The notes: generated by a model not told the origin, from the sequence alone. A stretch of 64,000 bases of DNA from Candidatus Hadarchaeum sp. (GCA_020725895.1 DYTO01000001.1:30894-94893), one strand, 5' to 3'. Counted from the first letter of the stretch, positions 5,114 to 37,577 are shown. Made by a program: numbers and translations.

Positions 5114-5953
5114 ATGTTGGGGGTTGAGATGCGCTCAAGACCTAGATCGATTTCGATAACGTCCGGGAAGGGCGGCACAGGCAAGACCACGGTAACAGCA
5201 AACTTGGGCATCGCACTTGGGATACTCGGCAAGAGGGTCACGATTCTTGATGCCGATTTGACGATGGCGAACTTGTCCATTGTCATGGGAATGCACCAGG
5301 TAAAGACAAGTTTTCTCGACGTGTTGGCGGGGAAGGCCGATTTGAGCGCAGCCATTTACGAAAACCACGGCATCAAAATCGTTCCGACGGGGTTCCGTTT
5401 CGAGGACTCGCACGAGGCGCTTTCAAAGGCGAAGCGGCAGCGCGTGGAAGAGGCCATAAATAAGCTGATCCAGGACACGGATTTCCTTCTAATAGACGCC
5501 CCGGCAGGCATACAGGACGCGACAATAGTTTCAATAGCCGCGGCGAACGAGATGCTGGCGGTCTGCAACCCAACATACACAAGCCTCGTCGACGCTTACA
5601 AAGTCATTCGCTATGCGAACGTGATTGGCGCGTGGACCCGTGGAGTCGTGGCAAACCGCGTTGGCAAAAGAGCCGAACTGCCGAGCAGCGAGATTGAGCA
5701 GTTCATGGGGAAGACCCTAGGAAGCATGCCGGTTCTGGCGGAGATCCCCGAGGACTCGAGAGTCCAAGAGGCAGAGCTTGAGGGGGTACCCGTGGTCGTT
5801 TACGAGCCGAACTGCGCTGCCTCGGTTGCCATCAATCGCTTGGCGAAGGTCATTTCAAGCGAAGCCGCTCTGCCACAAATCTCTGACAGGAAAGAAAGCT
5901 TGGCAGAGACGACAAGGCGCCTTGCGCGTGCCCTGACGGCCAGAAATGTATAA
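5114..5953 (+). CDS. minD: MinD/ParA-family P-loop ATPase, paralog 1 of 3
   Basis: Deviant Walker A ITSGKGGTGKTT, ILDADL, LLIDAPAG (Walker B); overall MinD architecture. An alternative start at M 5129 is possible. Confidence 0.8.
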   Translation: MLGVEMRSRPRSISITSGKGGTGKTTVTANLGIALGILGKRVTILDADLTMANLSIVMGMHQVKTSFLDVLAGKADLSAAIYENHGIKIVPTGFRFEDSHEALSKAKRQRVEEAINKLIQDTDFLLIDAPAGIQDATIVSIAAANEMLAVCNPTYTSLVDAYKVIRYANVIGAWTRGVVANRVGKRAELPSSEIEQFMGKTLGSMPVLAEIPEDSRVQEAELEGVPVVVYEPNCAASVAINRLAKVISSEAALPQISDRKESLAETTRRLARALTARNV

Positions 5954-6633: not shown

Positions 6634-8292
6634 ATGAAACGCAGAACGGAAGGGAGCATTCGAGTGGTTGCGGCGATATCATTGCTGTTTGTAATGTTTT
6701 TAATTACTTCTTCATTTGCTGCGGCGGCAAAGGGTGATCAAAAGACAAATGATAAAGAAGAGAAGAACACGCCGAAAAACACATTGAAGAGCAATCCCGG
6801 AAAATGGGCCGAAGTTTCCACACAGAAAGCAAATGATCAATCTTCAGTAGACGATAAAAAAGACAAAGGCAGTTCGACGCCAGCGCCACCTGTAGAAGAA
6901 CCAGAGGTAGAAGTCGATCTTCGACAGCAGGAGTTTCCTCAACTGGGGCGTCATCGACTGGCGTCTCAACTACTGGTTCCTCAACTGGGGCGTCATCGAC
7001 TGGCGTCTCAACTACTGGTTCCTCAACTGGCTCTTCTGCTGCAGGTTCCTACAGTTGAGGAAACCCCAGTTATCGAGGAGCCGGCAATTGAAACCCCTGT
7101 TGTGGAAGAGCCGGCCGCCCCCGCAGAGGAAATAGTGGTGGAAGTACCAACAGAGGCACCAATAGTTGAGGAGGCGCCGATTGAAGAAGAGCCAATTGTT
7201 GAGGCGACAGTAGAGGATCAGCCCGAAGTTCCAGAAGTTCAAGAACAATTTCCAGAAGAACCAGATGTAGAAACTCCAAGTTCCGAAGCCGAAGAAGTTA
7301 ATGTTGAGGAGCAAACAGTTGAAGAGCCAATAGGCGAAGAGCCAATTTCTGAAGATACAGTTGAGGAAACCCCAGTTATCGAGGAGCCGGCAATTGAAAC
7401 CCCTGTTGTGGAAGAGCCGGCCGAAATAGTTGAAGATGCCGCAGTAGAAACACCAGCAGAAGAAACTACTGTTGAGACGGCTGCCGAGGAACAAGTTGTT
7501 GAAGGACAGGATATCGAGGAACCTGTTGTAGAATCTCCGGTAGAGGAGACTAATGTCGATGATCAGATTACAGAAGAGCAAGTGGTCGAAGAACCCGTTG
7601 CTGAGGATGATATTGAGGAGACTGTCGAGGAGACAGCCGCCGTGGAAGAAATAGCGGTTGAGCAGCCTGTTGTTGAAGAGCAGGTAGCAACGACCGAAGT
7701 CGCAGCAACTCAAATAGTGAGCCAGAGCACGGTCAGCGTAGTTTCGTACAATCAACCAAGTGTTGCCACATCTGTGCAATCGACAGTGGCGGTCTCTGCA
7801 ATGAATTTGACAAAGGCAGAGGTCGTAACAGTAGAAAGAGTTTACCGCCAACCAGTTGTGATAACACAGACGGAAGCCGCACCTCAACCAGCGCCGTCAA
7901 CATCCCCGGCGGTACAGATAGCACAGGTTTCAACGCCGGAATTGGTGAGCGGGAGTTCTGATCAAGCGCCGTCACTGCAAACAAATACAATAAACCCGGC
8001 CGGATTGTCGACGGTTAATGCCGCTCCAACCGACATGACCATCACGGGTGCCGGACTCGGGTTTTTGGTGTTACTATTATTCGTCGCGGGCGGGCTGCTG
8101 AGACCGAAACTTTTGCCCCCCTCCATCGGTCTTAAAAAATTGCAGCCCGCCAACATAATCAAGATCAGGGTCTACAAGAGAGTCGGGCCGATACCGATTG
8201 AGCCAGCACCGGAAAGGCCGAACAGGTTGAAGGTTCTCGATAACAAGAAAATTTTGGCGCTTCTGGAAACGCCACGGATGGTAAGGGGGTGA
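6634..8292 (+). CDS. cell-surface acidic repeat protein (signal peptide, E/V/P-rich repeats, C-terminal TM anchor and basic tail)
   Basis: 552 aa. N-terminal VVAAISLLFVMFLITSSFAAAA signal, then many PxVEEP/ETPV-type acidic repeats, then ITGAGLGFLVLLLFVAGGLLRPK TM anchor. The long antisense ORF 7012..7887 is a repeat artifact. Confidence 0.7.
   Translation: MKRRTEGSIRVVAAISLLFVMFLITSSFAAAAKGDQKTNDKEEKNTPKNTLKSNPGKWAEVSTQKANDQSSVDDKKDKGSSTPAPPVEEPEVEVDLRQQEFPQLGRHRLASQLLVPQLGRHRLASQLLVPQLALLLQVPTVEETPVIEEPAIETPVVEEPAAPAEEIVVEVPTEAPIVEEAPIEEEPIVEATVEDQPEVPEVQEQFPEEPDVETPSSEAEEVNVEEQTVEEPIGEEPISEDTVEETPVIEEPAIETPVVEEPAEIVEDAAVETPAEETTVETAAEEQVVEGQDIEEPVVESPVEETNVDDQITEEQVVEEPVAEDDIEETVEETAAVEEIAVEQPVVEEQVATTEVAATQIVSQSTVSVVSYNQPSVATSVQSTVAVSAMNLTKAEVVTVERVYRQPVVITQTEAAPQPAPSTSPAVQIAQVSTPELVSGSSDQAPSLQTNTINPAGLSTVNAAPTDMTITGAGLGFLVLLLFVAGGLLRPKLLPPSIGLKKLQPANIIKIRVYKRVGPIPIEPAPERPNRLKVLDNKKILALLETPRMVRG
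6937..7030 (+). repeat. 42-bp tandem repeat (2.2 copies) in inverted orientation relative to the gene's other repeats
   Basis: The unit cctcaactggggcgtcatcgactggcgtctcaactactggtt occurs at 6937-6978 and 6979-7020, plus a partial third copy. Its reverse complement reads PVVETPVDDAPVEE in an open frame, which matches the protein's acidic repeat style. The forward strand instead encodes the odd QLGRHRLASQLLVP x2. It is flanked by the 9-bp inverted pair cctcaactg / cagttgagg. Confidence 0.6.
7051..7116 (+). repeat. 66-bp perfect direct repeat, copy 1 (copy 2 at 7357-7422)
   Basis: acagttgaggaaaccccagttatcgaggagccggcaattgaaacccctgttgtggaagagccggcc is identical at both sites, 306 bp (102 codons) apart and in frame. 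Confidence 0.8.
7357..7422 (+). repeat. 66-bp perfect direct repeat, copy 2
   Basis: Identical to 7051-7116. Confidence 0.8.
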
Positions 8293-13696: not shown

Positions 13697-14545
13697 ATGA
13701 TGCAAAAAGCCGCGCCAACAGCCGCAATGCTTTTCCTTTTGCTGTCTTTAGCAATGCCCTTGGTCGGCGCAGACACATACACGATAGCGCCTGGAGGCAC
13801 ATACATAGTTAATTTCAACGTGAAGAAACCCGCGTTTGTAAACCTGAACGAAGGCAAGTGGCAAGTAAGGGTATATTTTTACACAAGCACGAGCTGCTAC
13901 AACGACGGTTCATGGTGGCAGGCGAGCGGCGACTGGATATACAGCGGCTGGTATGAGGACCGGTACATCGGGGAGGCATGGGGGGGGTCTCCAGAGACAA
14001 AAGAGCACAACGTGTCCACGAAAATCGTTAGCTACCCAAGGCCAGCAGCGGACATAGATCACGGGATGACAGAGCTACCGCTCGGGAGCACTGTGAATTT
14101 CAGGTTAAGAGTACTGCTCGAGCTTGACAAGGAGCCGGTCTTTTCGGGAGGAGGCGAGACTGAGTCGGGGGTAGTGTCCTTCATGATTGGAGGAACGGCG
14201 TACCAATACCAGTACACAGTTGACTTTTACGGGGATACTGAATTGGTCACGAGCAATCCGGAAAAGATGAAGATAAGCCAGAGTTCTTCCGGGGTGTGGC
14301 AGTTGACGATCGACCGGACACTTTCGGCATCCACCAGCGAGTCGGCGTCAAAGAGCGGGATATTTATACTCCCGGACCCCTTGGAAATCGATCTTGCATC
14401 CAGCGCATCTCCCGAGCAGTCGTTAGAACTCCCCTTGGAAGTGAAGATCGTCTCCGGGATAACGGTGTCATTGGTGGTCGCCGGTCTCGTGGCATACATT
14501 GCAATGAAAAAACACGGTGGGGGTGAAATTTTTGTCGAACACTAG
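13697..14545 (+). CDS. secreted, membrane-anchored protein, paralog A (signal peptide, beta-rich ectodomain, C-terminal TM)
   Basis: 282 aa. Signal MLFLLLSLAMPLVGA; ectodomain motifs VRVYFYTS and KIVSYPRPA are shared with the downstream paralog; C-terminal TM ITVSLVVAGLVAYIAM. Confidence 0.65.
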   Translation: MMQKAAPTAAMLFLLLSLAMPLVGADTYTIAPGGTYIVNFNVKKPAFVNLNEGKWQVRVYFYTSTSCYNDGSWWQASGDWIYSGWYEDRYIGEAWGGSPETKEHNVSTKIVSYPRPAADIDHGMTELPLGSTVNFRLRVLLELDKEPVFSGGGETESGVVSFMIGGTAYQYQYTVDFYGDTELVTSNPEKMKISQSSSGVWQLTIDRTLSASTSESASKSGIFILPDPLEIDLASSASPEQSLELPLEVKIVSGITVSLVVAGLVAYIAMKKHGGGEIFVEH

Positions 14546-14579
14546 AAGCTTTTTATGCAGCCATTTTGATAAGCAAAGG

Positions 14580-15689
14580 ATGCCGAAAATGAAGCGCCGG
14601 ATAGGGCTGCTGGCCGCTTTCGCGGTCGCGTTTGTAGTTCTAGCGTCAATTCAAACCTCACCTGTCGCGGCCGACGTCCAGTCAGTCCCCTCATTTGGGG
14701 TAGAGGTCACAGATTATCCGACGACGATTTCTCCGGGCGCATCATACACGATCGCGGTTAGCGTTTCTCGGCCAGAAGGCATGCCGCTTCCCAGTTGGGC
14801 TTCAGGTGATTCGCCCCCGAAATGGGAGATCAGGACGTATTTTTATGACGGCTTGAACGCTTACAGCGAAGGCGAAATGACCGACATCGGCGGTACAAAA
14901 CTATATACTGGATGGTGGGACCATCGCGTTCAGGGCGATTCTTGGACGGCCACAATGACGGACACACGGAATTTCGACATCCCAAACAAAATCGTCTCTT
15001 ACCCGCGTGCCGCAGATGAGATAACCGATGGAAAAATGAACGAGATTCCATTCGGGGAGGAGGTCAAACTAAAAGTAAAGTTGAGATTGAGGTGGGGGGA
15101 TTCGCAACTTCAGTTCAAAAACATCGATAATGACGAGGAGAACGAGTTGACTTTCACATACTACGGCGTGGAGTACGGTGGAGATTACACGGAAATAAAA
15201 GCCAATGTTAAATATCGAGTTGGAAGCGTTTATCTTGAAAAGAGCGAGGGCAACTACTGGCAAATAGATTACGAAACGATAAAGCAGGGAATCCTAGTTT
15301 CTGGCTCAGCGGGAGGCCTGCCGATAGAATTGATCGGGGGCGGAGTGGTCGCTCTTGTCGCCGTTGGAGCGATAATCGGTTTCATGAAGAAGCGCGGCGG
15401 CGGGGAAGCAAAGTACGAGGAATATTCTCAGCCTGCGCAGGCGCCATCGATGGCACTGCCACCAACCACATATCAAATGCCGACCCAAGCGCCCACACCG
15501 ACTTATCAGCAGGCGCCAACACAAGCGTATCCGCAAGTGCCTGCGCAAGCCACGCCACAAGCACCTCCACAAACATATCAGGTCCCGACACAAGCGCCTC
15601 CGCAGGCGCCACAGCAAGCGCAACAGAGCGCACAACCTCAGCAGCCCGAAGCGAAGAAGAAGAAAGAGAAAGACGACTTTGATTTCTAG
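14580..15689 (+). CDS. secreted, membrane-anchored protein, paralog B, with P/Q/T-rich cytoplasmic tail
   Basis: Shares EIRTYFYDG and KIVSYPRAA with paralog A. Signal peptide, TM GGGVVALVAVGAIIGFM, then an APTQ-rich low-complexity tail ending KKKKEKDDFDF. Start taken at MPKMKRR; the track starts at 14517. Confidence 0.65.
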   Translation: MPKMKRRIGLLAAFAVAFVVLASIQTSPVAADVQSVPSFGVEVTDYPTTISPGASYTIAVSVSRPEGMPLPSWASGDSPPKWEIRTYFYDGLNAYSEGEMTDIGGTKLYTGWWDHRVQGDSWTATMTDTRNFDIPNKIVSYPRAADEITDGKMNEIPFGEEVKLKVKLRLRWGDSQLQFKNIDNDEENELTFTYYGVEYGGDYTEIKANVKYRVGSVYLEKSEGNYWQIDYETIKQGILVSGSAGGLPIELIGGGVVALVAVGAIIGFMKKRGGGEAKYEEYSQPAQAPSMALPPTTYQMPTQAPTPTYQQAPTQAYPQVPAQATPQAPPQTYQVPTQAPPQAPQQAQQSAQPQQPEAKKKKEKDDFDF

Positions 15690-16390
15690 GTGCGCAGGAG
15701 TTTCCTGGCCAAGTTAGTTATCGCAGAGTACGCCGAGGACTTTGGTGACGACACCATTAGCGGGACCCCTTCTTTCAGAGCCTTCATCACGGCGTCGTCT
15801 TCAGGAACAGTCCCAAGCAACGGCACATTCATGATCTCTTTTATCTCATCCTTGTCAAGCTCGAATTCCTCGCCCCTGACGCGGTTGAGAACGAACCCGA
15901 TTGGCCGAGACCCCAAAAATTCCGCGACAAGGCGGGTTTTCATGCAGTCGGAAACAGCAACCATGTCGGGTGTTGTCACAAGCAAAGTCTCGCTGGAGGA
16001 CCTGAGCGCAGCCACGGTTTCTCTCCTCAGACCCCCCGAGGTGTCAATCAAGACGAAATCCGCCTTCACAGCAAGATTTTTCATTATCTCTGGCAGCTGC
16101 TCAGGGCGCGTCCTCTTTATCTGTTGCAGGGTCACCGCCGCCGGAGCGATTTTAACCCCCATCGGCCCCGTGTAAAGGACGTTGTCGAACACAGTTTCGC
16201 CTACTATGGCGTCGTTTATTGTGTAGATCGCCTTCTCAAGCTTGAAAAGGAGCGCGAGATCAGGCGTTGTGAAACACGCGTCGATTATTATCGTCTCCTT
16301 GCCCATCTTGGCAAGCGCGAGGCCTAGGTTCGCAACTAGCGTGGTGCGCCCAACTCCTCCCTTCCCTGATGCAACAGCGATAACCCGCAT
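15686..16390 (-). CDS. minD: MinD/ParA-family ATPase, paralog 2 of 3
   Basis: MRVIAVASGKGGVGRTT deviant Walker A, then FVLIDTSGG. Start taken at internal ATG 16390; the track ORF extends to 16483. The 3' end overlaps the paralog B stop by 4 nt, convergent. Confidence 0.8.
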   Translation of the reverse strand: MRVIAVASGKGGVGRTTLVANLGLALAKMGKETIIIDACFTTPDLALLFKLEKAIYTINDAIVGETVFDNVLYTGPMGVKIAPAAVTLQQIKRTRPEQLPEIMKNLAVKADFVLIDTSGGLRRETVAALRSSSETLLVTTPDMVAVSDCMKTRLVAEFLGSRPIGFVLNRVRGEEFELDKDEIKEIMNVPLLGTVPEDDAVMKALKEGVPLMVSSPKSSAYSAITNLARKLLRT

Positions 16391-16476
16391 ATAACCACCA
16401 GACCTCTTTAACAGGTTTGTAAATTGATATCCTTTTTCGCTTTTAAATAGGGCCCGACTAAATAAGGAGGGGGAGA

Positions 16477-17670
16477 ATGCCACAAAAATACGATGTAGTA
16501 GTCGTGGGGGCGGGGCCAGCAGGACTGGCGGCAGCGAGTTCGGCTGCGGCGGAAGGCGCGAAGACCCTAGTGCTGGAAATGCGAGCGCAGGTCGGCGGAC
16601 AGTTGAATTTTGAAAGCTTGGTGTCTCAGGAGTTGGCGAAGGACTTCAAAGGCGCCGCTGTCGGCGAAATCAGAGAATTGAGGCTGATCTCTCCCAAAGA
16701 AAAACTTGCGGTCAGGGGAAAAGTAGGAAAGATTCTCGACAGGGAAGAAGTTTCCAGGATTTTGGCCAACAAGGCGGTGTCTTCTGGAGCCGAGATATGG
16801 ATCAACTCGCCCGTGAAGCACCTTTTGGCAAACGATGGGATTGTCCGCGGCGTGAAAGCCGAGTCCGGCAGTTGGTCCGAGATCGTGAACTCTGAAGTGC
16901 TAATAGACGCCACAGGAAGCGCGGGTCAATTTTCGAGCATTTTCTTGAGGAAATTCTTGAAAAAAGAATGGGCATTCGAGGAACTGGCTTTTTCAAACGA
17001 ATATCTGATGGCCAATTCAAACGTCACCGCGCCTGAAATTTACTTCAACTCATACGTTGCGCCGGGCGGCCGGGCCTGGATATACCCGTTCGGGGCTGGG
17101 AACTCCTTGGCCGGAATCTACGGCATAAGGATCCATCCGGACACGGCGTTGGACGAGTTCATAGGAAGGGTTTCCCCTAGCTCGCTCACAAAAGCCTCCC
17201 CGATAGTTTCAACAAGAGGCCAAATCCCGCTTCAGGGCCCGCTGGATCAAACTTGCGGCAATGGGATAATTTCAGTGGGGGCGGCAGCAGGCCAAATTAA
17301 CCCCCTCACAGGCAACGGCTTACGGTACGCGCTAGCGTGCGGGGAAATCGCCGGGAGGGCCGCCGTCGAGGCGGTCACGGAAGGCGAAGTTTCGGAGTCC
17401 AGACTTTCTGAAGCCGACAAGAATTGGAAATCCATATTCTCCTCGGAATTCGAAGCGTGCAAAGCCGTTCATTCTTTCCTGAAAGTTTCGCAGGACAAAA
17501 AGATGGACAGCATTTTGAAAGTACTGAAAGGCAGTCCGAATGCAAGGAGATCTTTCACAAACGTTTTCACAGACTCAAAACTGAATCACTCTCTAAAGAC
17601 GCTGGTGAAGAGCGAAGTTGGCAAAATCCTCGGGCAAGAAGTCTCAGACAGGGTTTTGAATCTTGTCTAG
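16477..17670 (+). CDS. geranylgeranyl reductase-family FAD-dependent oxidoreductase
   Basis: MPQKYDVVVVGAGPAGL (GxGxxG FAD site). The 397 aa length and overall similarity fit archaeal digeranylgeranylglycerophospholipid reductase. Confidence 0.8.
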   Translation: MPQKYDVVVVGAGPAGLAAASSAAAEGAKTLVLEMRAQVGGQLNFESLVSQELAKDFKGAAVGEIRELRLISPKEKLAVRGKVGKILDREEVSRILANKAVSSGAEIWINSPVKHLLANDGIVRGVKAESGSWSEIVNSEVLIDATGSAGQFSSIFLRKFLKKEWAFEELAFSNEYLMANSNVTAPEIYFNSYVAPGGRAWIYPFGAGNSLAGIYGIRIHPDTALDEFIGRVSPSSLTKASPIVSTRGQIPLQGPLDQTCGNGIISVGAAAGQINPLTGNGLRYALACGEIAGRAAVEAVTEGEVSESRLSEADKNWKSIFSSEFEACKAVHSFLKVSQDKKMDSILKVLKGSPNARRSFTNVFTDSKLNHSLKTLVKSEVGKILGQEVSDRVLNLV

Positions 17671-17679
17671 ATCAGGTGG

Positions 17680-18609
17680 TTGGGGATGCGCTGTTATTCA
17701 TGCAACAGCGAATCAGTTTTCTACGACCATTACAGGGGCGAGTTCTCGTGCACGAGATGCGGGTTGGTCATTTTCGACCGTGCACTTGAGTCCGGGCCGG
17801 AGTGGCGGACGAAAGTTGGTGAGAGCGGAGAGAGGGCGGACGTTGGTTCAGGGATAGATTACACGCTGCATGACTTGGGGATGGGTTCAAGTTTCAACTT
17901 GCCCAACGACGTCTCGCCCGCGAACAGGGCTAGGCTCCGAAGAATGCGCGAGATTCAAAAGCGCTCGAAGACCATCGGATGGCAGGAAAGGAGCCTTCGC
18001 GAGGCCATGATTGAACTTGACAAAATCTGCGAGGACCTGTCGATACCAAAGGGCATCAAGACGGAGGCGAGCATGATATACCGCCGCGCAAAGTCCAAAG
18101 GGCTCACAGGGGGCAGGAACATGAGCCAGGTTTTGGCAGCCGCGATTTTCCTGTCATGCAGGCTCAGGGGAATCGCGCGAACGGAGGGAGAGGTGTCGGA
18201 TTCGATTGCCGCGAGGTACGGTTTTGAAAGTAAAAAATGCGAAAGAACAATCAGAAGAATAGTAAGGGCGCTGAAATGCGCTTTGCAACTTGATGTTAGA
18301 AGGATCTCTCCCGACGAGTACATAGACAAATATTCAACCAAGTTGGGCATTTCCAGGGCGTCCATTGAAAAAGCGCACCAAATCCATCAAAAGTTTCCTA
18401 GGAAATTCTTGCAGTCGAAATCACCGCTATTCTTGGCCGCAATCATGATATATTTGGGGGTCAAAGAAACCGGCGAGTTGGTGACGCTGAAGCAAGTCGC
18501 GGATGGCGTGGGTGTCGGCGTTTCGAGCCTTTCCCAAAACGCCACGCAGTTCAAAAAGATTATTCAGAAAGACCTAAACGAGCCCACTTCTCTCAAAAAG
18601 CGTATTTAA
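17680..18609 (+). CDS. tfb: transcription initiation factor IIB (TFB)
   Basis: N-terminal zinc ribbon CYSCNS...CTRCG followed by two cyclin-fold repeats. About 307 aa. Likely start at M 17686. Confidence 0.85.
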   Translation: MGMRCYSCNSESVFYDHYRGEFSCTRCGLVIFDRALESGPEWRTKVGESGERADVGSGIDYTLHDLGMGSSFNLPNDVSPANRARLRRMREIQKRSKTIGWQERSLREAMIELDKICEDLSIPKGIKTEASMIYRRAKSKGLTGGRNMSQVLAAAIFLSCRLRGIARTEGEVSDSIAARYGFESKKCERTIRRIVRALKCALQLDVRRISPDEYIDKYSTKLGISRASIEKAHQIHQKFPRKFLQSKSPLFLAAIMIYLGVKETGELVTLKQVADGVGVGVSSLSQNATQFKKIIQKDLNEPTSLKKRI

Positions 18610-18655
18610 GTAAAAAGGGTTAATACCTCTCGTAAGTTAAGTTTGGTGTTGCCTC

Positions 18656-19507
18656 ATGAAATCGACTGGAGCTGAGTCAGAAGTATTTTGCCCGAAATGC
18701 AGGCGATACGTTGGGACGTTTGAGCGTTGTCCTTATTGCAGATCTAAAGTTCCGACAAGATTCTCATACCGTTTTCTGAAGTGGGGTGGGCTCACCGTTG
18801 CCGTCCTTGGCGTGATTTTCCTTTATGTCGACCTTCACGGCCCTCGCTTGGTCGTACGTCCGGTCCCGACTGTCGGGATAAGTGAGATCGGCCCGACGAT
18901 GAATTACGCTCAAGTCTACATCACCGGAAAGGCCACGTTCGTGAAATACGACGAAGAGACTAGGGCATTGGGAATGTTTTTATCCGACGAAAACGGCGTT
19001 GAACTCTTTATCAGGGCCTATGATACGGAAACCCTGCGTTTGCTGAAGTTTGAGAATAAAAGATTAATGGAAAATGACAACACTCCGAGGTTCCCAGGGA
19101 CCGGAGATATAATCACCGTGCGAGGAAACCTACGCATCCGCCCGGACTTCAACATGATGATTGTTTCATTCGCGGAGGGCGTAACCATCGACCGTCCCGA
19201 GGCATCCATCGTCACGATAGAAAACATGGTTGAAAATTCCACGGCGTTCGGCATCTACGAGAGGTTGCAAATAGAAGGAAAAATAATAGACATCGCGACG
19301 TACGACTGGTCAACAATCCTGACAGTCTACGAGATCAGTTCCGGTGCCGAGGCATCTGTTCTGATTCCCAACATTTTGACAGACTTTCTAAGACCATTTG
19401 ATGCAAGTATGGGGGACATGATTAGGGTTAGGGGCGCTTTCGGAATGTATTACGGGTCCCCGCAGCTCTGGCTTGCTTCCTGGGATGATTTTGAGGTGAT
19501 CGGTTGA
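18656..19507 (+). CDS. membrane protein: N-terminal zinc ribbon, single TM, two extracytoplasmic OB-fold-like repeats (paralog of next gene)
   Basis: CPKCRRY...CPYCRS; TM LTVAVLGVIFLYV; two roughly 105-aa repeats of the pattern V-hydrophobic-G-K/T ... F-L-D ... G-D-x-V-x-V-x-G, the second ending YGSPQLWLASWDDFEVIG. The pattern resembles the bacterial OB fold (BOF/YgiW, tRNA_anti-like). The stop overlaps the next start (ATGA). Confidence 0.55.
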   Translation: MKSTGAESEVFCPKCRRYVGTFERCPYCRSKVPTRFSYRFLKWGGLTVAVLGVIFLYVDLHGPRLVVRPVPTVGISEIGPTMNYAQVYITGKATFVKYDEETRALGMFLSDENGVELFIRAYDTETLRLLKFENKRLMENDNTPRFPGTGDIITVRGNLRIRPDFNMMIVSFAEGVTIDRPEASIVTIENMVENSTAFGIYERLQIEGKIIDIATYDWSTILTVYEISSGAEASVLIPNILTDFLRPFDASMGDMIRVRGAFGMYYGSPQLWLASWDDFEVIG

Positions 19508-20961
19508 CCGAGGAGAACATCTGTCCAGCATGCGGCAAGCCAACGGCCGGATACGTCCCGTGCCCCCACTGCGGCGCAGATACGCGGATAAAGTTGAACA
19601 AGAAAGTGGTGCCAATTTTGATTTTGATTGTCTTTGTGGTCGGGATTGCCTTTTTCGGCGCGCATCTGGCCACGATAAGAGCAGACACGATGTCGATATC
19701 GAGCATAGACAGCTGGCAGAACTACGCCAGCGTTTGGGTTTCGGGGATTGTTACTTCCGGGCCGCAGATGGATGAACGCGGAATTTCTTTCGATATCCAG
19801 GATTCGAGCGGCGGGACCATGGAGATTGAAATTTACGTGCCCCCGACGACGCTAAAATCCCAGGGTCTGATGCCGAGCGTCGGGGACAACGTCAAAGCGT
19901 TCGGCCTGTTGCGGGTTTACGTCGACGGGAGCATAACGATGAGACCCTCCAAGCTTGGCGAGGATAAGTTCACAAAGGAGAACAAGTTCCAGCTCTATCG
20001 CGCCGAACCCGTTGAAACGAACATAACGAATTTGCTTTTGAACTGGCACAGCTCGAACTCGCTGAGATTCAAGCGGGTGTCTTTGGAAGGAACCATCGTT
20101 GGGATGAGGGCCCTGTCCTCGGCGAAAATTTACACGCTGCGCGACAGCGACAACAGCACGGTCGACATGTACGTCCACAACGGCGTCGTCAACGCGGAGA
20201 ACGGTGAGCTGGATTTGAAGTTGCTACAAACGGTGAGAGCGACCGTCGGGGCATCGCAATACGGGAACAGCCCACAGCTTGTTCTTTCAAGCTATGATCA
20301 GATCGAGGTTTTGGAAAGCGGCGCCGCAACCCCAGTCCCGATCGAGAGCGTTGACGAAAGCATGAGGGGCGAGTTCATCACTACTGGCGGGAAGATAATT
20401 TTCGTCCTGATGTCGGGCGAGACGAGCAGCCTAGAAGTCGAGAAGTATTACCTGGTAATCGATAATGAATCCAATGCGACGACATGGATGTGGAACAGCG
20501 TTTACCAGCTATTGCCAGATTCCACTCGAGAGCTGCTGAAGCGCGGGTCGGACCTGCAGTTCACAGGAAAAGTCTCTCAGTCCGGAGAACTATCAATCGA
20601 GTTTCTCCTGCCGCCAGATTATACGATAGATAACGGCACTTTCGAGCCGGACTTGATTGAAAACGTGATGTCTCTCGAAGGGGAAAACGTAGGAAAGGTA
20701 GTGGCGATCGAGGGAACGGTCACTTCCGTGGAAAATGTCGCAGCCTTTGACAACAAATTACCTCCAAACCGCCTATTCACGATCCAAGACAATTTCGGAG
20801 GAAACGTCAAGCTTTTGGTGACGAACACGGTTTATGAGAGAATTTTGAGCCCGCCGGTGGTCGGGGACAAAGTTAACGTTGTAGGGACGTACTTCTTGCT
20901 GGAATCAAACGCCGTCTGGATAACGCCGGGATTGCCGAGCGACATAGTGAGGGTGAGCTGA
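19504..20961 (+). CDS. membrane protein: N-terminal zinc ribbon, single TM, four extracytoplasmic OB-fold-like repeats
   Basis: CPACGK...CPHCG; TM VVPILILIVFVVGIAFFGA; four roughly 105-aa repeats. Examples: NYASVWVSGIVTS...FDIQDSSG...VGDNVKAFGLL and NVGKVVAIEGTVTSVEN...FTIQDNFGGNVKLLV...VGDKVNVVGTYFLLESN. One repeat ends GNSPQLVLSSYDQIEVLE as in the upstream paralog. Confidence 0.55.
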   Translation: MTEENICPACGKPTAGYVPCPHCGADTRIKLNKKVVPILILIVFVVGIAFFGAHLATIRADTMSISSIDSWQNYASVWVSGIVTSGPQMDERGISFDIQDSSGGTMEIEIYVPPTTLKSQGLMPSVGDNVKAFGLLRVYVDGSITMRPSKLGEDKFTKENKFQLYRAEPVETNITNLLLNWHSSNSLRFKRVSLEGTIVGMRALSSAKIYTLRDSDNSTVDMYVHNGVVNAENGELDLKLLQTVRATVGASQYGNSPQLVLSSYDQIEVLESGAATPVPIESVDESMRGEFITTGGKIIFVLMSGETSSLEVEKYYLVIDNESNATTWMWNSVYQLLPDSTRELLKRGSDLQFTGKVSQSGELSIEFLLPPDYTIDNGTFEPDLIENVMSLEGENVGKVVAIEGTVTSVENVAAFDNKLPPNRLFTIQDNFGGNVKLLVTNTVYERILSPPVVGDKVNVVGTYFLLESNAVWITPGLPSDIVRVS

Positions 20962-22487
20962 TGGAAACTCTGATTTATCTCATTTACTCGATGATTGGAG
21001 TTTTGGTGGGCGGGCTATTCTCGGTCCTGCCAGGTATGCACGTTCTCAATTTCGTCGGGATAGGGGTTTTCATCTACCTGGCCCTGCCCCTGGATGTTCT
21101 GGCGCTGACAATGATCTTCCTCGGGATGTTGATCGGGTACATCGTGGTCGGCTTGATCCAGACGACTTACATGGGATTACCGGACGACAGCACGCGATAC
21201 TTCGCATTCCCCAACCAGAAATTGCTGATGTACGGGCGGGGTCACGAGGCCGTCGTGGTCGCCGGGATAGGCGCGGTCAGCGCGGCGCTGATGCTCATGA
21301 TGCTGGCACCTCTTTCCAGCACCATATTCCCCATTTTCAGGAGATTGACAACTCCCCACCTCCACTGGATACTGATAGGAACTGTCACCTACCTGCTGCA
21401 GTCGGAGTGGCCCAAGGACTGGGGAAGCAGGGCGAAGACGAGGTTTGGCAGGCTGAAGGACGGCTGGGCGAGCCTGAGCGCCGGCTGGGCAGTTTTCTTC
21501 CTTTCGATGATGATGGGTTTCATAATAATGAACATCTCTATCCTTGCGCCGCAGAGAGCGTTCCAGAACCTGATGCCGGTCGTGGTCGGTTTCTTCGGAG
21601 TTTCATACATGCTGATGAACCTCATATCGCGCGCCAAGATTCCTGAACAGAAAGTTGGAAACGATATTTACATGAAGAAGATGGACTTCCTGCGCGGCTC
21701 CTCTTCAGGTTTCCTGGGCGGGATGTTCGCGGCGTTCGAGCCCGTGGTGACTGCAGGGCCAGGGATGAAGTTGTCGGCCCACGCGACCGGCACGAGCGGC
21801 GACAGCCAGTTCATGATTTCGGGAGGCGCCGGCAGGTTCGCATACTACGTCGGCGGCTTCTTCTTTCTCTGGGTTCCGCTGCTTCACCTGACCCGCAAGG
21901 CGCTTGGGATGATCACGAGCCTGATGTACCAGCCAACCGTCGAATCGGAGTTCTGGCTTTTCATGGCGGCCATAGCGATGGGGACCGCGTTCTCGTTCAT
22001 TTTACTCGTATTTCTTTCAAAGAGGATAGCAAAGGTGATCACGAAGATCAATTTCCAGATGCTGTCATTGATTCTCCTTTCAGTGATAATCGGACTCGTG
22101 TGGGGATTCTCGGCGACATCGGATTATAACCCGCTGCTTCTCGTCGCGACGATTCTGATCACCGCCGGGCTGCTTTTCGTCGGCTTCAACGCATTGCTCA
22201 GGTTGATCGATCATCTCAGGAGAAGGTCCGGATGGCCGATTTACCTTCTAGCGGTCATTGGCATGGTCTTACTTTTCTTCGCAGTGGAAACGCTGCTCCT
22301 TCAACCTGGCGGGGTAATCGAAGGAATAAGGGCGATGATAATCCTCACGATTGCGACCGGAATAGGCCTCATGCCGCTGACTTTCAGGACCATGTGGACG
22401 AACACACTTCTTGGTTACTTCTTCCCTCTGATGCTGAACATGGCCGGGTTGAGCGCAGGGATAGTCGTTACGCTGGGGGTGTACTAG
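20961..22487 (+). CDS. polytopic integral membrane protein (roughly 10-12 TM), possibly a TctA/DUF112-like permease
   Basis: 508 aa, hydrophobic throughout, with G/P-rich helix breaks (LPGMHVLNFVGIGVF). The start overlaps the upstream stop by 1 nt (TGATG). The next gene follows after 0 nt. Confidence 0.5.
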   Translation: METLIYLIYSMIGVLVGGLFSVLPGMHVLNFVGIGVFIYLALPLDVLALTMIFLGMLIGYIVVGLIQTTYMGLPDDSTRYFAFPNQKLLMYGRGHEAVVVAGIGAVSAALMLMMLAPLSSTIFPIFRRLTTPHLHWILIGTVTYLLQSEWPKDWGSRAKTRFGRLKDGWASLSAGWAVFFLSMMMGFIIMNISILAPQRAFQNLMPVVVGFFGVSYMLMNLISRAKIPEQKVGNDIYMKKMDFLRGSSSGFLGGMFAAFEPVVTAGPGMKLSAHATGTSGDSQFMISGGAGRFAYYVGGFFFLWVPLLHLTRKALGMITSLMYQPTVESEFWLFMAAIAMGTAFSFILLVFLSKRIAKVITKINFQMLSLILLSVIIGLVWGFSATSDYNPLLLVATILITAGLLFVGFNALLRLIDHLRRRSGWPIYLLAVIGMVLLFFAVETLLLQPGGVIEGIRAMIILTIATGIGLMPLTFRTMWTNTLLGYFFPLMLNMAGLSAGIVVTLGVY

Positions 22488-23669
22488 ATGAGGGGCTTGA
22501 CTCACTTCATGATGGGGATGATGGTTGCCACGTTCTTCAAGAGCCTTATGGTGGGCGCGGCCATGCAGGACTCGCTCCTGATAATATTGGGCGGAGTGTT
22601 TGGCCTGCTTCCGGACACTTTGGACTTTAAGTTCCTCGTGTACGTGGAGCCGCAGGACGCTGTCATCGACCCCGACCCGCACAACATGAACCCGCAAGAC
22701 ATCGCGGAAAAAATCGCGGCCGAGATAAACCACACGGACCAGATGGAGCCGGGCAAGATGAGGCGGCTGCAAACGCACACATTGAAGCTCGGTCCCGACC
22801 TCTGGCAGTCGTACAGCATAAATTTCAACAAGGCGAAGCGGCAGGTCGAGGTGAAGGTCGGTCCGCACGTCACGATGAGCGGAATGCCGGCATTCGGGAC
22901 GGAGCCGCCGACGGACAAGGCTTTCGGGGTGGCGAGGTACAATCCTAAGCTCATTGATGTGTACGGAAGGGCGACCGAGGTTAAAGGTTTCAGCGGGCCT
23001 TCGTTCGGTTTCCTGAAGAGGAAGGATGGGGCGGTCGAAGTCGTTTTCATCCCGTTCCACAGGCGCTCCGGTCACAGCATGACTATGGGTTTCGTTTTCG
23101 CGCTTATCGGTTGGTTGCTCACCGGGGTCTGGCAGGTCGGAGGCGTCATACTCGCCGGATGGACGATGCACATCGCACTCGACTCTTTCGGCCACCTCGG
23201 GAACAACCTTTTCTGGCCTGTGATGAAGCAGAGGACAAGCGGGCTTTACCTAGTCAGCGCGTCAAACCCGTACTGGAACGCGTTCGCGATATACTCCTGC
23301 ATCGCGCTAATATTCTGGAACATGAACATGTACAACGCTTCTGTCAGCCCGGCGTACACGGTTGCCTGGATGACTTCGCTCGGACCCGCGCTTTACATTT
23401 TGTCGGTCATACTCATCCCATGGTCGATACTCGGCGCGATCTATTTCACATACCGCAAGAAAACGAAGGGGCAGAGGTCATACGAGCTATTCGCTTCGAC
23501 GACAGAGGTTGCGGGAGCGGCCGAGCCAGAGTCGGCGGGAATCGTCGAGCAGGAGCACTACTACGAGGTAGACGAGAAGCAGAAGCCATCCATGTTCTGG
23601 AGGGCGCTGGGAATCGGCATACTCATTGTGATTATGGTCATCCTGTTCGCGTACGGGCCGACCTGGTGA
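22488..23669 (+). CDS. membrane-bound metal-dependent hydrolase-like protein (DUF457/YdjM-like N-terminal domain) with extended C-terminal TM region
   Basis: MRGLTHFMMGMMVATFF N-terminus, HSMTMG and HIALDSFGH histidine motifs as in DUF457. 393 aa with additional TM helices and a charged tail. Confidence 0.45.
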   Translation: MRGLTHFMMGMMVATFFKSLMVGAAMQDSLLIILGGVFGLLPDTLDFKFLVYVEPQDAVIDPDPHNMNPQDIAEKIAAEINHTDQMEPGKMRRLQTHTLKLGPDLWQSYSINFNKAKRQVEVKVGPHVTMSGMPAFGTEPPTDKAFGVARYNPKLIDVYGRATEVKGFSGPSFGFLKRKDGAVEVVFIPFHRRSGHSMTMGFVFALIGWLLTGVWQVGGVILAGWTMHIALDSFGHLGNNLFWPVMKQRTSGLYLVSASNPYWNAFAIYSCIALIFWNMNMYNASVSPAYTVAWMTSLGPALYILSVILIPWSILGAIYFTYRKKTKGQRSYELFASTTEVAGAAEPESAGIVEQEHYYEVDEKQKPSMFWRALGIGILIVIMVILFAYGPTW

Positions 23670-23671
23670 AG

Positions 23672-23680
23672 TTTTTTAAA
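23672..23680 (+). promoter_or_regulatory. TATA-box-like element (ttttttaaa) about 28 bp upstream of tRNA-Trp
   Basis: Position and composition typical of archaeal tRNA promoters. Confidence 0.35.
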
Positions 23681-23704: not shown

Positions 23705-23852
23705 GGGGTCGTAGTGTAGCTTGGCAGCACACCGGCCCAGAACCGGGCTGAAGGCAGGCTCCAGTGGATGCTTGTAGGTCTGCTGACGAAAGGATGATGA
23801 CCTATTGGAGCGGTGAGACCTGCAAATCCGGGTTCAAATCCTGGCGACCCCA
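23705..23852 (+). tRNA. tRNA-Trp(CCA) with 53-nt intron between positions 37/38, plus a possible second roughly 20-nt insertion 5' of the anticodon stem
   Basis: Acceptor GGGGTCG (23705-11) pairs CGACCCC (23845-51), discriminator A 23852. D-arm GTGT/ACAC. Anticodon stem GCAGG (23754-58) pairs CCTGC (23819-23). Anticodon loop CT-CCA-G, anticodon 23761-63. T-arm CCGGG-TTCAAAT-CCTGG (23828-44). Intron 23765-23817. An extra CGGCCCAGAACCGGGCTGAA (about 23733-23752) between D-arm and anticodon stem is unexplained. Confidence 0.6.
23765..23817 (+). ncRNA. tRNA-Trp intron with box C/D-like guide RNA motifs
   Basis: Canonical C' box ATGATGA (23794-800) and D' box CTGA (23783-86); degenerate terminal boxes (TGGATGC 5', GTGAG 3'). 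Guide TGTAGGT (23773-79) pairs exon ACCTGCA, placing the N+5 nucleotide opposite tRNA position 39. Guide TTGGAGC (23805-11) pairs exon GCTCCA, with G23808 opposite C34. Confidence 0.45.
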
Positions 23853-34389: not shown

Positions 34390-35178
34390 ATGAAACCATA
34401 CGTTGTGAAGCTCGGCGGGAGCGTGATCACGGACAAGAAAAAGCCGTTCAGCGTCAGGCGCCAGAATTTGAACCGGTTGGCGCGCGAGTTGTCAAAGTCA
34501 AAACGTCCGCTCGTCATTGTCCACGGCGGCGGGTCTTTCGGCCATCCCCTCGCTTCCAAGTACAAGATTAGCGGCGGCTACAGAGAAGAGAGGCAGTTGA
34601 TGGGGTTCGCTTTGACGCACAGGGCCATGGAGCAGCTTAACGCCGAAGTCGTAGGCGCCATGAGGTCGGCAGGAGTCCCGGCGGTTGCAGTCCAGACTTC
34701 CGCTTGCGCCGTCGTTAAGAACGGCAATATCCTGACACTCGAAAAGCGCCCGATAAAAAAGTTGCTCGATTTAGGCTTGGTCCCGGTGCTCTACGGCGAC
34801 ACAGTCCCTGATTTGCAAAAGGGGATGGGAATCCTCTCGGGCGACCAGCTTGCGGCGCGCCTGGCCAAGGACATTGGTGCGTCAAGGATAATTTTCGGCG
34901 TCGACGTCGATGGAGTCTACACCTCCGATCCGAGAAAAAACCGCGGCGCGGAAATACTAAAAAACATAACCCAGAAGGACTGGAACCAGCTTTCATTCTC
35001 AGGTGACAGCAGGATTAAAGACGTGACAGGCGGAATGAAAAACAAAGTAGGAGAGCTGTTGAAATTGGCGAAATCGGGAATAGAATCCGAGATAGCTAAC
35101 GCCGCAAAGCCGGGAACGATTGAAAGGCTGGTAAACGGCGAGAGAGGGCTTGGAACGATAATAGGTGGGAGAAAATGA
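34390..35178 (+). CDS. ipk: isopentenyl phosphate kinase (amino-acid-kinase family)
   Basis: MKPYVVKLGGSVITDKK, LVIVHGGGSFGH. 262 aa. Position next to fni as in archaeal alternative mevalonate pathway clusters. Confidence 0.8.
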   Translation: MKPYVVKLGGSVITDKKKPFSVRRQNLNRLARELSKSKRPLVIVHGGGSFGHPLASKYKISGGYREERQLMGFALTHRAMEQLNAEVVGAMRSAGVPAVAVQTSACAVVKNGNILTLEKRPIKKLLDLGLVPVLYGDTVPDLQKGMGILSGDQLAARLAKDIGASRIIFGVDVDGVYTSDPRKNRGAEILKNITQKDWNQLSFSGDSRIKDVTGGMKNKVGELLKLAKSGIESEIANAAKPGTIERLVNGERGLGTIIGGRK

Positions 35179-36254
35179 GCAAAAAAACCGAGAACAGGAA
35201 GCTAGAGCACTTGAACATATGCCTGAAGGGCGATGTTGAGTCAATCCTGAAAAGCACGGGGTTCGAGGACATCGATTTCATCCACAAGGCGCTTCCGGAG
35301 ATCGATTTGGAAGAGGCCGACCTGAAGACAAAATTCTTAGGCAAGAGTTTGGAAGCCCCGGTGATGATCCTTCCGATGACAGGCGGACATCAGCGCGGGA
35401 AGAACTTCAACCTGATTTTGGCCGCTGCAGCCCAGGAGTTTGGTTTGGCGTTCGGCGTAGGCAGTCAGAGGGCGGCGATTGAAAATCCAAAGTTGGCGCA
35501 CACTTACCAAGTCAGGAAAGTCGCGCCAGACGTCTTTCTCATGGGAAACTTGGGCGCGCCCCAGTTCGTCCAGGGTTACGGAATCAAGGAGGCGAGACAA
35601 GCGGTCGAGATGATAGACGCCGACGCTCTCTCGATCCACATGAACTCCCTCCAGGAGATAGTGCAGCCAGAAGGTGAGCCGAAGTACAACGGAGTCTTGC
35701 AGAGCATTTCAAAGATTTGCCGAGGTTTGAAAGTCCCTGTCGTCGCGAAGGAGACCGGCGGCGGGATAAGCAAGGAAGTCGCGCTCAAGCTGGCCAGGGC
35801 CGGCGCGGCTGCAATAGACGTTAGCGGGGCTGGCGGCACTTCTTGGGCAGGGGTCGAGGTTCAACGGGCTGAGACAAGCGTAGGCTACACATTGTGGGAT
35901 TGGGGGATACCAACTGCGGTATGCACGGCAGATGTCGTGGATTCAGTGAGCGTCCCTGTCATCTCTAGCGGAGGTATAAGGTCCGGGCTCGACGCCGCGA
36001 AAGCGTTGGCTCTCGGCGCGGATATCGTGGGGATAGCCCTTCCTGCGCTCCAGGCCGCGGCTGAGGGGGAGGCGGGAATAAGAAATTATCTTCAGAACTT
36101 TTTGTCGGAATTGAAGGCGGTAATGTTCCTGACCGGAAGCAAGAATCCGAAAGAGCTGCGCGGAGCCGGCCTCGTCATATACGGGTTGACGAGGGAAAAA
36201 TTGTTCAGCATCGGATTGGACCCGGATAGACTCTCAAAAGGTAGAAAAAGATGA
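35175..36254 (+). CDS. fni: isopentenyl-diphosphate delta-isomerase, type 2 (FMN-dependent)
   Basis: RKLEHLNICL N-terminus, VPVVAKETGGGIS, GGIRSGLDAAKALALGAD: TIM-barrel FMN enzyme motifs. 359 aa. Confidence 0.85.
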   Translation: MSKKTENRKLEHLNICLKGDVESILKSTGFEDIDFIHKALPEIDLEEADLKTKFLGKSLEAPVMILPMTGGHQRGKNFNLILAAAAQEFGLAFGVGSQRAAIENPKLAHTYQVRKVAPDVFLMGNLGAPQFVQGYGIKEARQAVEMIDADALSIHMNSLQEIVQPEGEPKYNGVLQSISKICRGLKVPVVAKETGGGISKEVALKLARAGAAAIDVSGAGGTSWAGVEVQRAETSVGYTLWDWGIPTAVCTADVVDSVSVPVISSGGIRSGLDAAKALALGADIVGIALPALQAAAEGEAGIRNYLQNFLSELKAVMFLTGSKNPKELRGAGLVIYGLTREKLFSIGLDPDRLSKGRKR

Positions 36255-37576: not shown

Positions 37577-37577
37577 G

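Follow-up and report, generated by a model that had tools for sequence, protein, structure and literature searches.

A coupled archaeal operon of anchored OB-fold arrays, a TctA-like protein and a YdjM-like putative hydrolase: a possible nucleic-acid import module

Gene layout and protein families of the operon

We analyzed a 64,000-nucleotide stretch of DNA from Candidatus Hadarchaeum sp. (GCA_020725895.1 DYTO01000001.1:30894-94893; hereafter "the window", with positions counted from its first nucleotide), and focused on an operon of four plus-strand genes at 18656-23669, here termed g1 to g4. The open reading frames (ORFs) of g1 (18656-19507, 283 amino acids), g2 (19504-20961, 485 amino acids, with a TTG start), g3 (20961-22487, 508 amino acids) and g4 (22488-23669, 393 amino acids) are translationally coupled, as a preliminary description of this DNA had proposed. 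Reading the junctions from the sequence, we found that the g1/g2 overlap at 19504-19507, previously given as ATGA, is TTGA: the TTG start of g2 overlaps the TGA stop of g1, and the N-terminus translated from this TTG (MTEENICPACG) agrees with the homolog consensus (MTEEKICPACG). The other two junctions read as described, with TGATG at 20959-20963 between g2 and g3 and, at 22487/22488, the TAG stop of g3 followed by the ATG of g4 with a 0-nt gap.

The proteins encoded by g1 and g2 share an architecture comprising a C4 zinc ribbon, one transmembrane (TM) helix, and two (g1) or four (g2) OB folds. BLASTP aligns the whole length of g1 collinearly with the first 270 residues of g2 (E=6e-15, 23% identity), in agreement with the paralogy first proposed. 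In g1, the zinc ribbon (C12, C15, C25 and C28; 18689-18739), read from the sequence with weak Pfam zinc-ribbon matches and predicted to be cytoplasmic, precedes a TM helix at residues 40-62 (18773-18841; Kyte-Doolittle hydropathy), and the N-terminal 39 residues include nine lysines or arginines, consistent with the positive-inside rule. The ectodomain that follows (18872-19504; isoelectric point (pI) 4.55) contains two OB repeats recognized by repeat hidden Markov models (HMMs), at residues 73-177 and 183-283. In g2, the zinc-ribbon cysteines (C7, C10, C20 and C23; 19522-19572) are near-invariant in 27 homologs, and the TM helix at residues 35-57 (19606-19674) is supported by both hydropathy and an AlphaFold2 model. 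Its ectodomain (19690-20958; pI 4.55) holds four OB repeats, at residues 63-153, 166-271, 275-374 and 377-485, identified by repeat HMMs, AlphaFold2 and Foldseek. Both proteins have a basic N-terminus and a long, acidic C-terminal part, a pattern that fits a zinc ribbon inside the cell and OB repeats outside. Orthologs of g1 lie at the matching position in other Hadarchaeota loci.

Several lines of evidence bear out the earlier assignment of these repeats to the OB fold, and their number. Profiles built from the first two g2 repeats match the two g1 repeats in order (8e-11 for residues 73-177 and 1e-13 for residues 183-283), and the four g2 repeat profiles recognize one another weakly (1e-5 to 7e-4). 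Pfam assigns three stretches of g2 to tRNA_anti-codon (6.5e-13), with sub-threshold matches to Zn_ribbon_3 (2e-4) and to DUF4131 (E=1e-3, 19.2 bits versus a cut-off of 31.6). A sequence search of solved structures in the Protein Data Bank (PDB) with g2 returned nothing. The AlphaFold2 model of g2, computed with 27 homologs (pLDDT 89.3), has beta-strands laid out as would fit four beta-barrel (OB) units, and comparing it with the PDB using Foldseek yielded 187 matches at E<=1e-3. All 50 of the matches listed are OB-fold nucleic-acid-binding proteins or complexes that contain them; the best are tandem-OB DNA binders, led by p204 HINab-dsDNA (1e-13), and RPA, RADX, CST, Teb1, POT1, TEBP-alpha, BRCA2 and LEF-3 are also among them. 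A conserved SPQL...EV motif, which had been said to form the terminus of both proteins, does so in g1; in g2 it occupies residues ~254-270 and marks the end of repeat 2, not the end of the protein.

Across the wider OB family, an N-terminal CxxC...CxxC precedes the TM helix in 54 of 72 members and the number of repeats ranges from 2 to 6, so the combination of zinc ribbon and multiple OB folds is a family trait rather than a peculiarity of the source genome. Bacterial homologs match tRNA_anti-codon at up to 3.6e-41, over five stretches, and also match tRNA_anti_2 and RMI2; DUF4131 scores reach 33.7 bits in one homolog (locus L036) and 29.8 and 17.8 bits in two others (L080 and L048). Anaerolineae encode a second two-OB paralog, of ~295 amino acids, that has no zinc ribbon.

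The g3 protein, first described as polytopic and permease-like, belongs specifically to the TctA family (Pfam TctA, 2.8e-28), with protein residues 7-399 aligned to positions 1-406 of the 423-position profile. At E<=1 TctA is its only Pfam match, and the Competence channel domain (PF03772) is not matched; nor do g1, g2 or g4 match TctB or TctC at this threshold. AlphaFold2 gave an all-helical model from 94 sequences (pLDDT 90.3, pTM 0.90). The g3 sequence profile found nothing in the PDB, and Foldseek found no match to the model at E<=1e-3 (best TM-score 0.23). Because there is no solved structural relative, the fold offers no mechanistic shortcut. The alignment shows a clade-specific insertion of ~70 residues in g3 (residues 385-454; 22113-22322) that adds two predicted TM helices. 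It is found only in the closest relatives, of ~508 amino acids, and is absent from the ~438-residue homologs of Hadarchaeota, Asgard archaea and bacteria; AlphaFold2 models this region as helices at 391-421 and 425-475.

The g4 protein passes the Pfam cut-off for YdjM (DUF457, PF04307), as had been anticipated, with 2.9e-12 and 46.9 bits versus a cut-off of 29. The match falls into two stretches, the better of which places residues 187-284 on profile positions 55-146; a match to Lactamase_B was not found in Pfam. What splits the YdjM core is a conserved soluble insert of ~140 residues (residues ~49-186; 22632-23045), which is occupied in all 35 homologs from the loci described below and in all 18 further representatives and is therefore a family feature, not a local insertion. 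Nine residues (H6, D43, D46, H191, H196, H228, D232, R249 and N264) are invariant across the same 35 locus homologs and 18 representatives (27-58% identity). This histidine/aspartate pattern is as expected of a metal-dependent hydrolase, and we treat g4 as a putative one. Assigning lysines and arginines by hand to alternating loops places the conserved histidines and aspartates, the insert and a KKTKGQR loop on one side of the membrane. A phmmer search of 1.84 billion representative sequences returned 263 relatives of g4 at E<=1e-3, none longer than 460 amino acids, and a sequence search of the PDB with g4 returned nothing. The g4 subfamily is thus small, divergent from mainstream YdjM proteins and never fused to another domain. 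While g4 retains the histidine/aspartate set consistent with a metal site, the 263 representatives of its subfamily are unconnected to the bulk of YdjM by single-sequence search, and differ from it in the conserved insert and in linkage to TctA-like genes. In E. coli, the product of ydjM is a putative hydrolase of the inner membrane, under LexA control and of unknown function. At its C-terminus g4 has an additional TM helix (residues 367-393; 23586-23666) behind an acidic linker; of 18 aligned representatives, only the three most closely related to g4 share it, and the others end earlier.

Gene linkage across archaea and bacteria

A genome scan with an alignment of nine g3 sequences identified 255 relatives, and we studied the loci of the best 80 of these 255. 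Six-frame ORFs from these loci were searched with OB-repeat and YdjM-like profiles, and the denominators given here count assessable loci. The archaea among the best 80 are Hadarchaeota, Archaeoglobales, a Korarchaeia-type Thermoproteota metagenome-assembled genome (MAG), Njordarchaeota and Nitrososphaerota; the many bacteria are mainly Anaerolineae and other Chloroflexota, with Spirochaetes, WOR-3 and others. On the archaeal side, 13/13 loci have an OB gene upstream of the TctA-like gene on the same strand, 11/11 have a YdjM-like gene downstream of it and 10/10 have all three genes; on the bacterial side, the corresponding counts are 39/46, 21/45 and 15/35. The median intergenic gaps measure ~12 nt (OB to TctA-like) and ~15 nt (TctA-like to YdjM-like). 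The reverse test started from metagenomic YdjM-like genes with at least 1.5 kb of upstream sequence: in 38 of 47 a TctA-like gene lies upstream, at no more than 150 nt in 30 cases, and where at least 3.5 kb is available upstream, OB genes are found as well in 23 of 30. The linkage therefore holds in both directions, and the YdjM-like gene is a dedicated partner of the OB and TctA-like genes.

The arrangement of g1 to g4 is not due to chance, since dozens of genomes that are not related to one another have their genes in this order. The layout is likewise not specific to archaea or to the source genome; it marks a widespread family that includes many bacteria. Homologs of g2 stem from MAGs of Hadarchaeota type, of which one bears the label Hodarchaeaceae, and here the order extends to a flavoprotein gene and a TFB gene, followed by g1, g2, and the TctA-like and YdjM-like genes. 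The MAG with this label ('Candidatus Hodarchaeaceae', JASEJC010000003.1, locus L007) has the complete flavoprotein-TFB-g1-g2-TctA-YdjM order and ~63% identity in TctA; the label may reflect a mix-up of the names Hadarchaeaceae and Hodarchaeaceae or of taxonomy. The preliminary description had named a non-OB fold of the repeats, membership in a characterized TctABC-type system and lack of synteny as findings that would speak against it. What we found are repeats that model as OB folds, no TctB or TctC, and a gene order conserved in relatives. OB-TctA or TctA-YdjM gene fusions, sought as a sign of physical association, were not found; ORFs that at first appeared long and fused were start-codon over-extensions and were rejected.

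In the 80 loci, the three top neighbor clusters are the TctA-like, OB and YdjM-like proteins themselves, and TctB and TctC are absent from these clusters and from ten further Pfam-annotated representatives. The only other recurrent neighbor of functional interest is a secreted protein of ~1000-1280 amino acids with LTD, DUF11 and PLDc_2 domains. Its gene directly follows the YdjM-like gene in seven genome loci (L004, L023, L024, L045, L079, L080 and L083) and in at least 14 of 50 metagenome loci (among L090-L169), and it is absent from the window. In many bacterial loci, L024 (5688-9530) among them, the protein has three LTD domains, a DUF11 domain and two PLDc_2 (HKD) domains and is encoded on the same strand as the YdjM-like gene. 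This LTD/PLD protein is plausibly an extracellular phosphodiesterase or nuclease, and would form a recurrent fourth component in many bacterial loci. Nine of the metagenomic YdjM-like loci with at least 1.5 kb upstream lack a TctA-like gene (L099, L115, L118, L129, L140, L142, L157, L159 and L169). At least two of these, L129 and L159, have an LTD/PLD gene downstream even though a TctA-like gene is absent from the stretch, and a YdjM-like/PLD pair may thus also occur without the transporter.

A distant TctA-like subfamily from DPANN and Hydrothermarchaeota, 22-25% identical to g3, has simpler surroundings. In five of six sampled loci a protein of 114-146 amino acids, with one TM helix and a single OB fold, is encoded upstream or one gene away, and the g2 repeat profiles match these small proteins at up to 1e-9. 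Since this subfamily also has an OB neighbor, pairing with an OB protein is general among TctA-like proteins that lack TctB and TctC, and the pair described in methanogens (see below) fits the same pattern. Proteins encoded downstream of three minimal pairs (L085, L087 and L089) are unrelated to one another and to g4, giving no third partner. Two single cases carry further genes: a DUF87/HerA-type P-loop ATPase with a weak TraG-like signal lies two genes downstream of one minimal pair (L085, 7165-8739), and just upstream of another (L088, 1-492 and 885-1622) are genes for a protein with a class III signal peptide, resembling archaeal pilins, and for a DUF2101 protein.

Nucleic-acid import and competing readings

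To our knowledge, archaea have no ComEC, and the sole genetic lead on how DNA passes the archaeal membrane is a methanogen pair of OB-fold and TctA-like proteins. A transposon screen in Methanococcus maripaludis JJ hit two adjacent genes (Fonseca et al. 2023, PMC10133366): MMJJ_13020, encoding an OB-fold protein with a single TM helix, and MMJJ_13030, whose TctA family product has 11 TM helices. In-frame deletion of either gene abolished natural transformation and both deletions were complemented; because the mutants could still be transformed with complementing plasmids by means of polyethylene glycol, the defect lies at uptake (PMC10133366). Deletion of the TctA-like homolog in Methanoculleus thermophilus also abolished transformation, and the authors put forward the TctA-like protein as the archaeal DNA transporter that had been missing (PMC10133366). 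The view in the preliminary description that no archaeal system of this kind had been described is therefore out of date, as this pair is essential for natural transformation of M. maripaludis (PMC10133366). Its idea of capture and translocation is also less novel than it held, because the methanogen genetics already support the core of that idea.

Likeness between this pair and the module extends to the families themselves (a PF01336-type OB fold and PF01970 TctA), the membrane anchoring of the OB protein, the placement of the OB gene beside the TctA-like gene (judged for the methanogen from locus tags), the lack of TctB and TctC, and an archaeal host. Unlike the methanogen OB protein, described merely as a single-TM OB-fold domain protein, g1 and g2 are two paralogs with N-terminal zinc ribbons and 2 + 4 OB folds. 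A coupled YdjM-like gene is present here, whereas none is reported in the methanogen study, and the g3 subfamily has a basic SEWPK...loop and, in its clade, the two extra helices.

Our preferred reading, in which belief and doubt are about evenly matched, is that g1 to g4 encode one membrane machine for the capture and import of nucleic acid, with DNA as the most likely substrate. The OB arrays of g1 and g2 would stand outside the cell as receptor and guide for extracellular nucleic acid, the TctA-like g3 would provide the conduit across the cytoplasmic membrane, and g4, as a metal-dependent hydrolase, would process the substrate, for instance through cutting or trimming of the strand as it enters. 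In many bacteria, the secreted LTD/PLD phosphodiesterase-like protein could be an additional, extracellular nuclease; a nuclease anchored in the membrane is required for transformation of M. maripaludis as well (PMC10133366). Imported DNA could serve recombination or nutrition. On this reading the module would be an elaborated form of the OB-fold and TctA-like pair required for natural transformation of M. maripaludis. Gene structure, coupling, domain families, predicted folds and the two-way gene linkage are all direct results of our analysis; what we infer is that the module does the same job as the methanogen pair and has DNA as its ligand, as well as the roles of the individual proteins and the topology of g4.

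The functional logic of this proposal, as predicted from the genes, resembles that of ComEC: a TM-anchored extracellular OB fold, a polytopic conduit and a metal-dependent hydrolase. In ComEC, the DUF4131 domain has been predicted in silico to contain an extracellular OB fold that binds single-stranded DNA, and the metallo-beta-lactamase domain was proposed to be the competence nuclease (PMC5031224). The title and abstract of a 2025 paper describe domains of ComEC as cooperating to degrade the non-translocating strand (PMC12455585). The TM helix and first OB segment of the g2 family resemble Pfam DUF4131, above the cut-off of 31.6 bits in L036 (33.7) and below it in g2 (19.2). The analogy to ComEC drawn in the preliminary description is reasonable. 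No Competence domain is matched in g3, and no Lactamase_B in g4. In the module the parts are spread over three to four proteins with zinc ribbons and multiple OB folds, the conduit is TctA-like rather than of the Competence family (PF03772), and the hydrolase is YdjM-like rather than a metallo-beta-lactamase and probably faces the cytoplasm. The weak DUF4131-like signal aside, the parts are not homologous to ComEC. Another archaeal membrane DNA import system, the crenarchaeal Ced system (CedA, CedA1, CedA2 and CedB), uses a VirB4/HerA-like ATPase and small TM proteins. Its proteins are unrelated to g1 to g4, and the operon contains neither a Ced-type ATPase nor a small TM protein.

A number of observations weigh against nucleic-acid import. 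The OB ectodomains are acidic (g1 and g2 as above; family median pI 4.64, with 54/65 below pI 6), an unusual property for a surface that binds DNA in general. The Foldseek result is biased, in that most tandem-OB proteins in the PDB bind DNA. By the positive-inside rule the conserved site of g4 would face the cytoplasm, unlike the extracellular nuclease of ComEC. The g3 model, being of a fold with no solved relative, speaks neither for nor against a DNA-sized path, and the only biochemically defined function of the TctA family that we know of is the import of small tricarboxylates. An ATPase gene is missing from the operon, and there are no pilus genes among the window ORFs scanned. The sampled minimal OB-TctA loci have no YdjM-like neighbor, and the methanogen screen reports no YdjM-like gene (PMC10133366). 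Finally, the proposed link to the methanogen pair is one of Pfam family, architecture and gene order, not of measured orthology: M. maripaludis proteins are not among the matches listed in our homology searches, and among the matches listed for the distant TctA-like profile are only DPANN and Hydrothermarchaeota. It is the acidic ectodomains and the cytoplasmic-looking hydrolase site, the fact that minimal methanogen-type systems seem to work without a YdjM-like partner, and the small-solute activity that is the TctA family's only defined one, that keep our confidence at an even balance.

Several of the same observations suit a receptor-dependent secondary transporter for small solutes, related to the tripartite tricarboxylate transporters (TTT), in which the anchored OB proteins would replace TctC and deliver a small ligand, perhaps cationic or metal-complexed, to the TctA-like permease. 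We consider this unlikely, and just as unlikely the corresponding role of g4, which would act on the solute or be accessory. By its nearly full-length homology to TctA (2.8e-28), g3 is a bona fide family member, in an operon that has no ATPase; its model has no obvious channel-like relative. The acidic ectodomains (family median pI 4.64) would suit cations or metal complexes, and one homolog has a sub-threshold match (24.1 bits versus a cut-off of 25.8) to BOF, a family of periplasmic OB proteins of unknown ligand. Yet the small TctB membrane subunit and the TctC/Bug periplasmic binding protein are both missing, with OB-fold and YdjM-like partners in their place, and a tricarboxylate is an unlikely substrate for g3. 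The OB repeats match nucleic-acid-type families, in homologs with very strong E-values; arrays of two to six OB folds suggest a polymeric ligand, and the co-operonic secreted LTD/PLD phosphodiesterase-like proteins likewise point to a polymer. An analogous OB and TctA-like pair is, moreover, required for methanogen DNA uptake (PMC10133366).

A polymer need not be nucleic acid, and the module could instead take up or remodel another phosphodiester polymer or a lipid, located outside the cell or in the envelope; phospholipid head groups, polymers resembling teichoic acid and polyphosphate are examples. In that case g4 would be a membrane phosphoesterase, and the bacterial PLD protein its secreted partner; we give little credence to either the process or these roles. 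PLDc_2 domains are not confined to nucleases but are also part of phospholipases and cardiolipin synthases, the conserved site of g4 would lie at the membrane surface in our predicted topology, and the annotation of the YdjM family goes no further than a putative metal-dependent hydrolase or phospholipase of the membrane. LTD domains, on the other hand, are typical of extracellular nucleases, and the OB folds are of the nucleic-acid-binding type. The methanogen genetics also indicate DNA (PMC10133366).

A membrane-anchored thermonuclease, and a MinD/ParA-like gene with its hypothetical operon partner, were also essential for transformation of M. maripaludis, and the screen found pilus, archaeosortase and M50 peptidase genes as well (PMC10133366). 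With these last three kinds of gene in the same screen, and with piliation of the OB and TctA mutants not described in the part of the report consulted (PMC10133366), the complex might build or maintain a surface structure, through type IV-like pili, S-layer anchoring or surface-protein processing, and the loss of uptake would be secondary. The class III signal-peptide (pilin-like) gene upstream of the minimal pair in L088 is in keeping with this. Against it, ~160 loci show no recurrent linkage to pilus or envelope genes, a Tad gene being present in only three; the recurrent partners are instead the hydrolase and the PLD/LTD protein, and it is not obvious what OB arrays of the nucleic-acid type would do in assembling pili. 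An indirect role of this kind therefore seems improbable to us.

Returning to nucleic-acid import, a more specific version, which we put forward tentatively and regard as doubtful, is that the module is a ComEC-independent DNA translocon common to archaea and bacteria, with zinc-ribbon-anchored OB arrays for capture, a TctA-like conduit and a YdjM-like strand-processing nuclease. Its carriers would be Hadarchaeota, Njordarchaeota, Korarchaeia-like Thermoproteota, Nitrososphaerota and Archaeoglobales among the archaea, and Anaerolineae, other Chloroflexota, Spirochaetes and WOR-3 among the bacteria.

That archaeal OB-fold and TctA-like proteins serve DNA uptake is already published as a genetic finding. 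In the literature searched, we found no account of the zinc-ribbon/multi-OB layout, of a dedicated YdjM-like component, or of the spread into bacteria and across domains with a frequent LTD/PLD partner. Our data suggest a larger conserved module of which the methanogen pair represents the minimal form; this module adds a metal-hydrolase partner, zinc-ribbon-anchored multi-OB receptors and, in many bacteria, the secreted LTD/PLD protein. Uncultured archaea (Hadarchaeota and Asgard relatives) and bacteria thereby come within the scope of the candidate system. Archaeal TctA-like proteins and one branch of the orphan YdjM/DUF457 family would gain a possible function, which under the translocon version would be their first. 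Should DNA not be the substrate, the module would still represent a previously undescribed type of receptor for TctA-family transporters.

Flanks of the operon and the wider window

On the upstream side, g1 adjoins a TFB gene (17680-18609; Pfam TFIIB and Zn_Ribbon_TF), as had been described, and the same flank holds a gene for a geranylgeranyl-reductase-like flavoprotein (Pfam). The 46-nt spacer between TFB and g1 is the only intergenic gap of the block. It contains a candidate archaeal promoter on the plus strand (18610-18625), read from the sequence as a purine-rich stretch resembling a B recognition element (BRE), then a TATA-like TTAATA (18620-18625) ~30 nt 5' of the g1 ATG. A T6 run at 23672-23677 on the same strand, 3 nt past the g4 stop, is a candidate archaeal oligo-T terminator. 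Promoter-like stretch and T6 run would both be compatible with a single transcription unit. Two antisense ORFs overlap g3 and g4 on the minus strand (22269-23195, 308 amino acids; 22502-23050, 182 amino acids); their composition is oddly rich in arginine, histidine and proline and homolog synteny gives them no support, and they are most likely spurious frames. An NCBIfam search gave no informative matches. As g1 to g4 had no matches among the PADLOC defense-system protein models, we rejected an anti-phage defense reading.

Downstream of g4 lies a tRNA gene (23705-23852; Rfam 35.6 bits) whose CCA anticodon at 23761-23763, read by hand, agrees with the tRNA-Trp previously noted there. ARAGORN makes no call at 23705-23852, because the gene carries an intron. 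This intron is long, and includes a sub-threshold Rfam match to the sR3 C/D-box small RNA (23764-23818; 17.9 bits versus a cut-off of 41), with box-like GAUGAUGA and CUGA elements and a guide, UUGGAGC, complementary to the anticodon region. These features agree with what we take to be the known C/D guide encoded in the tRNA-Trp intron of Euryarchaeota. The D arm is separated from the anticodon stem by an additional ~22 nt (~23731-23753), which may represent another intron.

Outside g1 to g4, the window consists of ordinary archaeal housekeeping DNA. It contains three MinD/ParA-like ATPase genes, at 5114-5953 (plus strand), 15686-16483 (minus strand) and 43825-44637 (plus strand), each of which adjoins ORFs without Pfam matches. 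The first is followed by a 552-residue ORF (6634-8292, plus strand), and the second is preceded by ORFs of 282 and 390 residues (13697-14545 and 14517-15689, both plus strand). The second gene lies 2.2 kb upstream of g1, an arrangement kept only among Hadarchaeota-type loci. Any of the three might be a counterpart of the MinD/ParA-like gene that M. maripaludis needs for transformation (PMC10133366). Further downstream, the plus-strand block at 34390-38576 encodes proteins of the amino-acid-kinase and FMN-dependent dehydrogenase families, an RNase J-like beta-CASP protein and a polyprenyl synthetase. The first two of these genes read as candidates for isopentenyl phosphate kinase and type-2 isopentenyl diphosphate isomerase (IDI), in which case the block would be an archaeal mevalonate/isoprenoid cluster and part of the housekeeping context.

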